This document shows positions 21,253-22,501 of a stretch of DNA of 64,000 nucleotides, in pieces. A model generated the notes under the pieces. The model worked only from the letters and a program-made list of their open reading frames with translations. It made no database searches and was not told the origin of the DNA. Both the position numbers and the translations under genes were made by a program. Source of the stretch: an uncultured Methyloversatilis sp. (lineage in GTDB: Bacteria; Pseudomonadota; Gammaproteobacteria; Burkholderiales; Rhodocyclaceae); contig CAZGOH010000001.1 of NCBI GenBank assembly GCA_964527195.1, positions 9,505 through 73,504 of the forward strand, written 5' to 3'. Positions within the stretch are counted from its first letter, which is position 1. Each line of letters starts with the position of its first letter.

Positions 21253-22501
21253 GCTACTGATCGAGGGCGGCACGCCGCTTGCCGGCGAGATCGCCATTTC
21301 GGGTGCGAAAAACGCGGCCTTGCCGCTGCTGTGTGCGGCGCTGCTGACGCGCGAGCCGGTCACCTTCACCAACGTGCCGGCGCTCAACGACATCGCCACC
21401 ATGCTGAAACTGCTGGCGCAGATGGGGGTGAAGGTCGAGAAAGTCGGTGCTGGCGGGACGGTGACATTGACGGCGGATGCCCTCGACAATCCCGTCGCAC
21501 CCTACGAGTTGGTCAAGACCATGCGCGCCTCGGTGCTGGTGCTGGGGCCGCTCGTCGCGCGCTGCGGCGAGGCGCGCGTCAGCCTGCCCGGCGGCTGCGC
21601 CATCGGCGCACGGCCGGTCGATCAGCACATCAAGGGCCTGACCGCGATGGGCGCGGAGATTGCCGTCGAGCAGGGCTACGTCCACGCCAAATCGCCGAAG
21701 CTGAAGGGGGCGCGGCTGTTTACCGACATGGTGACGGTCACCGGTACCGAAAACCTCATGATGGCTGCCTGCCTGGCCGACGGCGAGACCGTGATCGAGA
21801 ACGCGGCGCGCGAGCCCGAGATCGTGGACCTCGCCAACTGCCTGGTCGCCATGGGCGCGCGCATTTCCGGCGCCGGCACCGACGTGATCCGCATCCGGGG
21901 CGTGGAACGCCTCTGCGGCACGACGCATCGCATCATGCCCGACCGCATCGAGACGGGCACCTACCTCTGCGCGGCGGCAGCCACCGGCGGCGCGGTGCGC
22001 CTGACGCACACCTCCGGCAGCTATCTCGACGCCGTGGTCGACAAGCTGATGGATGCCGGTTGCGAGATCGCGCTCGAGCGCGATGCCATTCGCCTGCGGG
22101 CGCCCCGGCGCCTGACCGCCGTCAGTATCCGCACCGCCCCGTATCCGGCTTTCCCGACCGACATGCAGGCGCAGTTCATGGCCATCAACTGCGTGGCCGA
22201 GGGGACGGCGATCATTCGCGAAACCATTTTCGAAAACCGCTTCATGCACGCGGTCGAACTGATCCGCCTCGGTGCCGACATCAAGATCGACGGCAATACG
22301 GCCTTCGTCACCGGCAAGCCGCAAATTGAAGGCGCAACGGTGATGGCCACCGATCTGCGTGCGTCGGCGAGCCTTGTCGTCGCCGGCCTTGCCGCACGTG
22401 GCGAAACGCGCGTCGACCGCATCTACCACCTCGACCGCGGCTACGAGCGCATGGAGGAGAAGCTGGCAGCCTTGGGGGCCCGTGTGAAGCGAGTCAAGTG
22501 A
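21245..22501 (+). CDS. murA: UDP-N-acetylglucosamine 1-carboxyvinyltransferase
   Basis: [32 protein letters not shown]. Confidence 0.97.
21440..21463 (+). repeat. 24-bp motif copy (murA, KVGAGGTV)
   Basis: aaagtcggtgctggcgggacggtg. Confidence 0.88.

Follow-up and report, generated by a model that had tools for sequence, protein, structure and literature searches.

To our knowledge, genome-wide uptake sequences with sequence-specific uptake of DNA have been established in two bacterial families only, both of them host-associated. The DNA uptake sequence (DUS) of Neisseriaceae is a 12-nucleotide (nt) word, ATGCCGTCTGAA, which together with its dialects is bound by the minor pilin ComP and which often occurs as inverted pairs in terminators. 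Among other dispersed repeats, the Rickettsia palindromic elements are palindromic and about 100-150 nt long, while repeats of the REP/REPIN type (repetitive extragenic palindromes and their hairpin-forming doublets) and of the MITE type (miniature inverted-repeat transposable elements) are extragenic, hairpin-forming and often paired. The subject of the present report is a 24-nt asymmetric DNA motif that recurs 18 times in a stretch of 64,000 nt of contig CAZGOH010000001.1, from an uncultured, Sulfuritalea-like member of the Rhodocyclaceae (the window, by which the whole of this stretch is meant), inside unrelated genes as well as in the spacers between genes, and that may represent an uptake-sequence-like tag.

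As described by Findlay and Redfield (PMC2817400), a third to two thirds of the copies of the uptake signal sequence (USS) and of the DUS lie in open reading frames (ORFs), in biased frames and at poorly conserved residues, and the encoded peptides are enriched; 35% of the USS of Haemophilus influenzae are found outside ORFs, and 34.5% of the DUS within them. The motif of the window resembles the USS of Pasteurellaceae, which are asymmetric, present about once per 1-4 kb on both strands, lineage-specific, mostly genic, confined to few favoured frames and to poorly conserved positions, and about three-fold enriched between genes (PMC2817400). The differences concern architecture and host: the USS of H. 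influenzae extends over about 29 nt but has a core of 9 nt, AAGTGCGGT, with weak A/T-rich flanks, whereas at least 18 of the 24 positions are near-invariant here, the host is a G+C-rich environmental betaproteobacterium, and the copy in murA looks like the insertion of a whole unit. With the DUS the motif shares a betaproteobacterial host and a specificity at the family level, the decayed or variant forms of sister genera being comparable to DUS dialects; moreover, an inverted pair forming a terminator-like hairpin is seen in one relative (locus L074, 1360-1412: two inverted copies around an ATAAT spacer, giving a 24-bp stem followed by TTTCTTT). DUS are, however, mostly outside ORFs, while about two thirds of the copies of the motif are genic and pairs are rare. 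Like the Rickettsia palindromic elements, the motif is a DNA repeat of frame-compatible length that unrelated proteins accommodate, in translated form, at tolerant positions of their surface; unlike them, it is 24 nt long, not palindromic, and at most sites overlies pre-existing sequence without a clean insertion. Like the REP/REPIN and MITE-type repeats it is short, interspersed and present in hundreds of copies, but about two thirds of these are genic, and the motif is unstructured and devoid of conserved flanks or terminal repeats. The likeness to DUS and USS put forward in a preliminary description of this DNA holds, in summary, for abundance, for the presence of both orientations, for frames and positions and for the restriction to a lineage; the short core of 9-12 nt has no counterpart here.

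At 21440-21463 (+) the window reads AAAGTCGGTGCTGGCGGGACGGTG, corresponding to murA codons K66-V73 (KVGAGGTV). The preliminary description had started from this site and claimed that its sequence is repeated across the window, which proved correct (18 copies against 0 expected). A search with the murA 24-mer allowing up to three mismatches yields six matches, as compared to 0.00 expected from 100 dinucleotide-preserving shuffles; the two-block pattern AAAGTCGG-N10-ACGG yields 16 exact copies, and two more degenerate ones bring the total to 18, equivalent to about one copy per 3.6 kb, 8 on the plus and 10 on the minus strand, with a fairly even spacing (17 gaps, mean about 3.4 kb). The pattern common to the 18 copies is (R)AAAGTCGG-YNNY-GRCG-NN-ACGGCG, for which 0 occurrences are expected by chance, and it may also be written (R)AAAGTCGGCGCTGGCG-RN-ACGGCG. 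AAAGTCGG occurs 20 times in the window, 17 times as part of a full motif; the two conserved blocks thus almost never stand alone. A logo built on 199 copies from the window and related genomes reads (A/G)AAAGTCGG CGCT GGCG (G/A)N ACGGCG, with about 18 of the 24 positions nearly invariant; positions 9-12, left free in the search, are still 73-91% conserved. The edges are sharp, the information content reaching background within a single base at both ends; the motif is thus not a core around which a longer repeat is built, and a longer mobile element is ruled out by the lack of conservation in the flanks. The motif is self-complementary at only 6 of 24 positions, its predicted fold energy equals the shuffle mean, and Rfam gives no match for it, the sole gathering-level match in the window being a riboswitch for S-adenosylhomocysteine (SAH); a hairpin, a REP sequence or an RNA element is ruled out on these grounds. 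The 5' block AAAGTCGG resembles the USS in its form AAGTGCGG, a similarity that may be a coincidence.

Gene identities were assigned with Pfam and NCBIfam, and frames with a codon-usage model trained on the confident genes of the window and checked by hand; 14 copies are genic and four intergenic. Six of the genic copies are read in sense frame 0, giving KVGxGxTA (PyrF, MshL-type secretin, MurA, CcoI, Mod and TlyA site 1), and four in sense frame +1, giving KSALAxRR (745-aa ORF, HisC, the second LpxL-type acyltransferase and TlyA site 2); the antisense strand is read as AVxPxPTF in three (prepilin-type gene, 498-aa ORF and AhcY) and as RRxAxADF in one (DegT aminotransferase). In order along the window, the copies are the following:

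3664-3687 (-), perfect consensus, in pyrF (gene 3346-4164, -), frame 0, KVGAGGTA
7784-7807 (+), in a prepilin-type gene (7180-7824, -), antisense, FAVAPAPTF
10024-10047 (-), degenerate (5 mismatches), in a 745-aa ORF (7803-10037, -), frame +1, RKSAMTTRR
12315-12338 (+), in a 498-aa ORF (10907-12400, -), residues 24-32, antisense, DAVSPGPTF
16982-17005 (-), degenerate, in an MshL-type secretin gene (15320-17110, -), frame 0, KVGIDRTA
21440-21463 (+), in murA (gene 21245-22498, +; Pfam EPSP_synthase, E = 2e-115), frame 0, KVGAGGTV
24595-24618 (-), in hisC (gene 24474-25535, -), frame +1, AKSALALRR
27652-27675 (-), intergenic, between the hisA stop (27647-27649) and the hisF start
38193-38216 (-), in ccoI, encoding a copper-type P1B ATPase (gene 37458-39893, -), frame 0, KVGPGETA
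42427-42450 (-), intergenic, between the lpxL2 stop (42464-42466) and the dapF ATG (42412-42414)
43125-43148 (-), in lpxL2, encoding the second LpxL-type acyltransferase (gene 42467-43315, -), frame +1, RKSALAIRH
45856-45879 (-), in a DegT-family aminotransferase gene (45103-46191, +), antisense, RRIAIADF
48297-48320 (+), intergenic, between convergent metK (stop 48285-48287) and a hemerythrin gene (stop 48336-48338)
51550-51573 (-), degenerate (4 mismatches), in ahcY (gene 51098-52498, +), antisense, IAVLSAPTS
55702-55725 (+), perfect consensus, in a type III mod gene (53329-56358, +), frame 0, KVGAGGTA
59687-59710 (+), in tlyA, site 1 (gene 59597-60340, +), frame 0, KVGPGGTA
60016-60039 (+), in tlyA, site 2 (same gene), frame +1, EKSALAGRQ
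61181-61204 (+), intergenic, between convergent metF (stop 61161-61163) and a TonB-dependent receptor gene (stop 61207-61209)

All the peptides that the preliminary description had read from the motif were recovered at these sites (the KVG type in PyrF, MurA, Mod, TlyA and CcoI, the KSALA type in HisC, the acyltransferase and TlyA, and the antisense peptides of the prepilin-type protein, the 498-aa ORF, AhcY and DegT). To its list are to be added the degenerate copies in the secretin gene and in the 745-aa ORF, together with the four intergenic ones; as to the 498-aa ORF, which has no Pfam or NCBIfam match, its label 'PilM-like' found no confirmation.

That the motif is kept as DNA and not as protein, as the preliminary description had maintained, is strongly supported: it occurs in unrelated genes, in four frames and in spacers, and is therefore maintained at the level of DNA rather than of protein, and the same conclusion is reached from the codons that it imposes, from the frames used in relatives and from its absence in syntenic outgroups. 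The codons set by the motif are minority ones, the usage outside it in the genes of the window being 22% for Lys AAA, 18% for Phe TTT, 2.8% for Leu CTA, 6.4% for Ala GCT and 11.5% for Gly GGG; AAA is found in all six KVG copies, and TTT in the antisense copies that end with Phe. In hisC, the string AAG TCG GC(G/C) CTG GCG CTA CGG is retained in four motif-bearing lineages, the rare CTA included, while Thauera and a Sterolibacteriaceae metagenome-assembled genome (MAG) have CTG, with different codons throughout. When the codon columns of conserved amino acids in hisC and murA are considered, 10 of 13 are identical across relatives inside the motif, as compared to 46% outside it.

A scan for the motif over one genome per species matched at least 116 blocks; the resulting taxon lists are samples, and densities from loci selected by the scan are biased by the way in which those loci were chosen. 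The following figures refer to the matches listed. The hosts are overwhelmingly Sulfuritalea, Sulfurisoma, Sterolibacteriaceae and unclassified Rhodocyclaceae MAGs, and the 169 copies comprise 108 genic, 46 intergenic and 15 just upstream of a start, the share of intergenic or just-upstream copies being 27-36%, similar to the 35% of USS that are outside ORFs in H. influenzae. All but three of the 108 genic copies (105, distributed as 47, 10, 28 and 20) fall in the four frames used in the window, the remaining 3 being in the Arg/Trp-rich frames that read SRRWRDG and PSRQRRL. The four frames in use give either small and flexible peptides or peptides rich in Ala, Leu and Arg. Codon quality as a cause of the choice of frame holds only partly: the well-used antisense frame AVPPAPT scores as poorly as the avoided frame SRRWRDG, which implies that amino-acid composition matters more. 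A preference for the protein termini is also ruled out, positions along 91 complete ORFs being roughly uniform (14 in the first decile, about 9 expected).

Around murA, over about 21 kb, the regions of relatives were taken without regard to the motif: the window has five copies, two relatives (MurA identity 94% and 89%) have five and six, and the places shared by orthology are in the secretin gene, murA, hisC and hisA/hisF, the latter copy having its orthologous counterpart in relative L238; the syntenic DNA of Thauera and of Sterolibacteriaceae MAG5, similar in G+C content, has 0 copies. In Sulfurisoma the murA region contains one good copy, and the copy in murA itself is interrupted by an insert of 24 nt, which suggests that the motif is decaying in this genus; in S. 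sediminicola (L241, about 10190-10260) the interruption follows AAAGT and the insert encodes MRSGIPGD. In Sulfuricystis multivorans (AP018718), degenerate orthologous copies are found at four sites, namely lpxL2, tlyA site 2, ahcY and upstream of dapF. At TlyA site 1 the motif is present in about one third of the homologues at every level of identity, from 65 to 85%, a patchiness which indicates what is probably repeated gain and loss or allele exchange.

As to the proteins, the claim of the preliminary description that the copies occupy tolerant loops was about half right. It stands for the hairpin tip of MurA, for PyrF, for both sites of TlyA, for CcoI, for the linker of the secretin, for the leader of the prepilin-type protein and for the extension of Mod. 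In MurA, motif-free relatives read MGVKVERDGDTVTLDA; where the motif is present, KVGAG(G/E/D)T(A/V) forms part of a loop with 2 to 19 additional residues. In the AlphaFold model (mean predicted local distance difference test score, pLDDT, 79.5), with strands at 63-67 and 72-76 and a turn at 68-71, the motif is the tip of a beta-hairpin, K66-V67 being the end of a strand, G68-G71 the turn and T72-V73 the start of the next strand, and solved structures of MurA aligned from the PDB vary in sequence and length at this site. PyrF has two residues more than the orotidine monophosphate decarboxylase of Leishmania (RVG--DRYLYE in the PDB alignment). TlyA site 1 is a hairpin of the S4 domain, again with two extra residues compared to TlyA of M. 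tuberculosis (RID--GLPA), where close homologues switch between GRVSLDGEAILKPA and GRVKVGPGGTAVTKPS; site 2 adds one residue to a variable segment of the methyltransferase domain. In CcoI the nucleotide-binding domain carries the motif in a variable loop that follows its SEHP helix; in the MshL-type secretin the motif is in the linker after the lipobox of the lipoprotein signal peptide, which varies among orthologues, and in Mod in the C-terminal part, past the region that aligns with Mod of EcoP15I. The Pfam N_methyl motif of the prepilin-type protein covers residues 17-39, downstream of the peptide in question (residues 6-14), which presumably is within the cleaved leader.

The loops claim does not stand for HisC, DegT, LpxL2 and AhcY, in which the motif is found in variable segments aligned without indels; those of HisC, DegT and LpxL we take, from their folds, to be helices, and that of AhcY is within a segment missing from the shorter SAH hydrolases of the PDB. 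At some of these sites part of the peptide is already there in motif-free orthologues: HisC has G(E/G)LA(L/Q)ALR as compared to EKSALALR in motif-bearing ones, DegT has KRRNIARLY (pattern RRxIAxxY) as compared to RRIAIADFY, and AhcY has DVLSNPQS or SVIARPTN (pattern V(L/I)SxPxS) as compared to AVLSAPTS. The preliminary description had taken conservation of these peptides in orthologues from lineages devoid of the motif as evidence against its view, and such conservation is indeed seen in part in HisC, DegT and AhcY, at the level of the peptide and not of the DNA. The four copies would thus sit in pre-adapted variable segments, and not in loops with indels.

Some copies touch the boundaries of genes. 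The one at 7784 is read in two frames, ending the upstream 745-aa ORF with a TAG stop (7800-7802) and providing codons of the prepilin-type protein, while that at 10024 holds the first ATG (10035-10037) of the 745-aa ORF, upstream of which about 290 nt of open frame contain no start codon. The ATG of dapF lies 13 nt downstream of the copy at 42427, whose reading KVGPGDTA is noncoding. No terminator-like site was found at either of the two copies placed between convergent genes (48297 and 61181), and a role as terminator was rejected for them, inverted pairs also being rare among the loci fetched.

The motif is, in conclusion, a lineage-specific and orientation-independent DNA element, whose genic copies are filtered by the tolerance of the proteins. 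By analogy with known systems, we give about even chances to its being a self-recognition tag akin to the uptake sequences, whose spread would be due to biased uptake followed by homologous recombination. According to this proposal, DNA with the motif would be favoured by the competence machinery during uptake, motif-bearing alleles would replace motif-free alleles by homologous recombination (molecular drive), and purifying selection on the proteins would decide where copies persist. Genic copies are in fact found only where their translation does little harm: in hairpin tips, linkers, the prepilin leader, termini and variable segments. The patchiness of TlyA site 1 fits with allele exchange, or with repeated gain and loss.

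A number of observations weigh against the uptake proposal. The motif is much longer and richer in information than the 9-12-nt cores of USS and DUS, which makes its origin by point mutation alone harder. The commonest gain in length among motif-bearing MurA homologues is exactly 8 aa, or 24 nt (30 of 79), with KVGAGGTA between ERD and GDT, which looks like the insertion of a whole unit, unlike the supposed origin of USS. The host is not known to be competent, and the literature yielded neither a description of the motif nor a paper joining uptake sequences with Rhodocyclales or Sulfuritalea. Inverted pairs are limited to one case among the fetched loci (L074) and to none in the window. Finally, at least 120 viral contigs of IMG/VR bear the motif, mostly in one copy each and with the same unselected CGCT middle. 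Twenty of the contigs listed (their loci include L120, L131, L132 and L137) carry it in one family of phage DNA methyltransferases with a DPPY motif, as a single copy reading KVGAG(D/E)TA in the C-terminal tail, and others in a few further families, with one cluster resembling the large terminase subunit; the frames used in the viral copies are those of the host pattern.

The phages would also suit a different and rather unlikely explanation, namely that the motif forms an array of binding sites for a chromosomal protein (nucleoid-organising, involved in segregation, or a 'self-marker' in defence), again with protein tolerance filtering the genic copies: the phages of the clade could gain from a 'self' mark of the host, a conserved asymmetric site of 24 bp is nearer in size to a protein operator than to the known uptake cores, and the spacing in the window is fairly even. 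The known arrays (parS, matS, Noc-binding sites and SlmA-binding sites) are, however, palindromic and consist of tens of copies as compared to about a thousand, no candidate protein was found, and the patchiness of orthologous sites and the fast decay in sister genera fit drive better than an essential architectural role. A polar signal for recombination or translocation, of the kind of Chi or of the FtsK-orienting polar sequences (KOPS), would likewise be over-represented, chromosome-wide and asymmetric, as the motif is, but we consider it very improbable: Chi and KOPS are 8 nt long and very strongly biased towards the leading strand, whereas the 24-nt motif, when oriented by the local GC skew, divides only 65:43 (over the 108 copies from clearly skewed blocks), a weak bias which is partly due to the G-richness of the motif itself and partly expected from gene orientation. 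From the KVG-, ALALR- or RRxxA-like peptides that pre-exist at some sites in motif-free orthologues one might suspect that the proteins share a motif, or that G+C-rich coding sequence produced the likeness by coincidence; the probability that we leave to this is negligible, a single 24-nt sequence being found in four frames and in four spacers, with 0 expected in shuffles, with rare codons fixed and with outgroup orthologues free of the motif DNA, and it was rejected on the frame and intergenic data.

The way in which copies arise bears on yet another explanation, that the motif is a tiny selfish unit of 24 nt (8 codons), pasted in frame by some enzyme as in the case of the Rickettsia palindromic elements. 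Its length is a multiple of three, the commonest state of MurA is the ancestral loop plus 8 aa, and its high information content argues against a stepwise origin; moreover, one TlyA homologue has a tandem second copy at the motif site (...QEWSLAGRRERCEKSALAGRQNGRQ...) and some MurA homologues have extended repeats after the motif peptide (e.g. KVSAGGTASAGTAANTGAALA), which hints at local slippage or duplication possibly occurring around copies. Most other sites, however, show no gain of 8 codons (0 in HisC, DegT, LpxL2 and AhcY, +2 in PyrF and TlyA site 1, +1 in TlyA site 2), and the motif in hisC overlies an ancestral sequence that already matches 14 of its 24 bases (counted by hand from the printed codons), which indicates a gain by substitutions; terminal repeats, target-site duplications and conserved flanks are absent, and no transposase-like gene was seen. 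We thus hold the pasted unit to be improbable. In a bolder variant, to which we attach still less credence, the motif would be no passive tag built up by point mutations: the 8-codon unit would be actively copied to new sites, loops of proteins included, by templated insertion or gene conversion. No smaller in-frame selfish element would then be known, and its spread might be coupled to an uptake bias.

Some of the loci that surround the copies deserve a description of their own. Four copies are carried by a cluster resembling msh-type IV pilus or type II secretion systems, at 7180-17110 (-), which includes genes for the MshL-type secretin, for an MshE-type ATPase with an MshEN domain binding cyclic di-GMP, for a GspF-like protein and for the prepilin-type protein, as well as three ORFs (498, 212 and 745 aa) without a match in Pfam or NCBIfam. 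Within the murA-hisGD...BHAF cluster, hisC alone lies on the other strand, an arrangement that is identical in the five relatives fetched (5/5, L237-L241). Two LpxL-type genes for lipid A acyltransferases are in tandem at 42467-44196 (-), and only the downstream one has the motif. The SAH riboswitch (RF01057, 57.6 bits) is at 50958-51031 (+), directly upstream of ahcY, in a neighbourhood with metK, ahcY and metF. A type III restriction-modification pair at 53185-59516 (+) is composed of mod (N6_N4_Mtase, with an EcoP15I-like core) and of a res-like helicase gene, the stop-to-stop open frames of the two sharing about 150 nt. At about 1010 aa, the Mod product far exceeds Mod of EcoP15I in length, and its extra C-terminal part is the one that contains the motif.

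That a single DNA motif is translated in several frames, at tolerant positions, is already known from uptake sequences, while the motif itself, its length and its host lineage appear to be new. Two practical consequences are that the motif can be used as a lineage marker for binning metagenome contigs of the Sulfuritalea type, and that it explains recurrent peptides such as AVPPAPTF, which could otherwise be mistaken for protein motifs. Should the uptake function be true, this would be a third independent case of such a system, found in free-living, G+C-rich Rhodocyclales, and tags for self-recognition would be more widespread than thought; a signal of 24 nt would be much more specific for the study of recognition by the receptor, and the octapeptide insertions of MurA, the rare codons of HisC and the stop and start codons supplied by the motif would amount to a natural experiment in which a drive acting on DNA reshapes the proteins of these bacteria.

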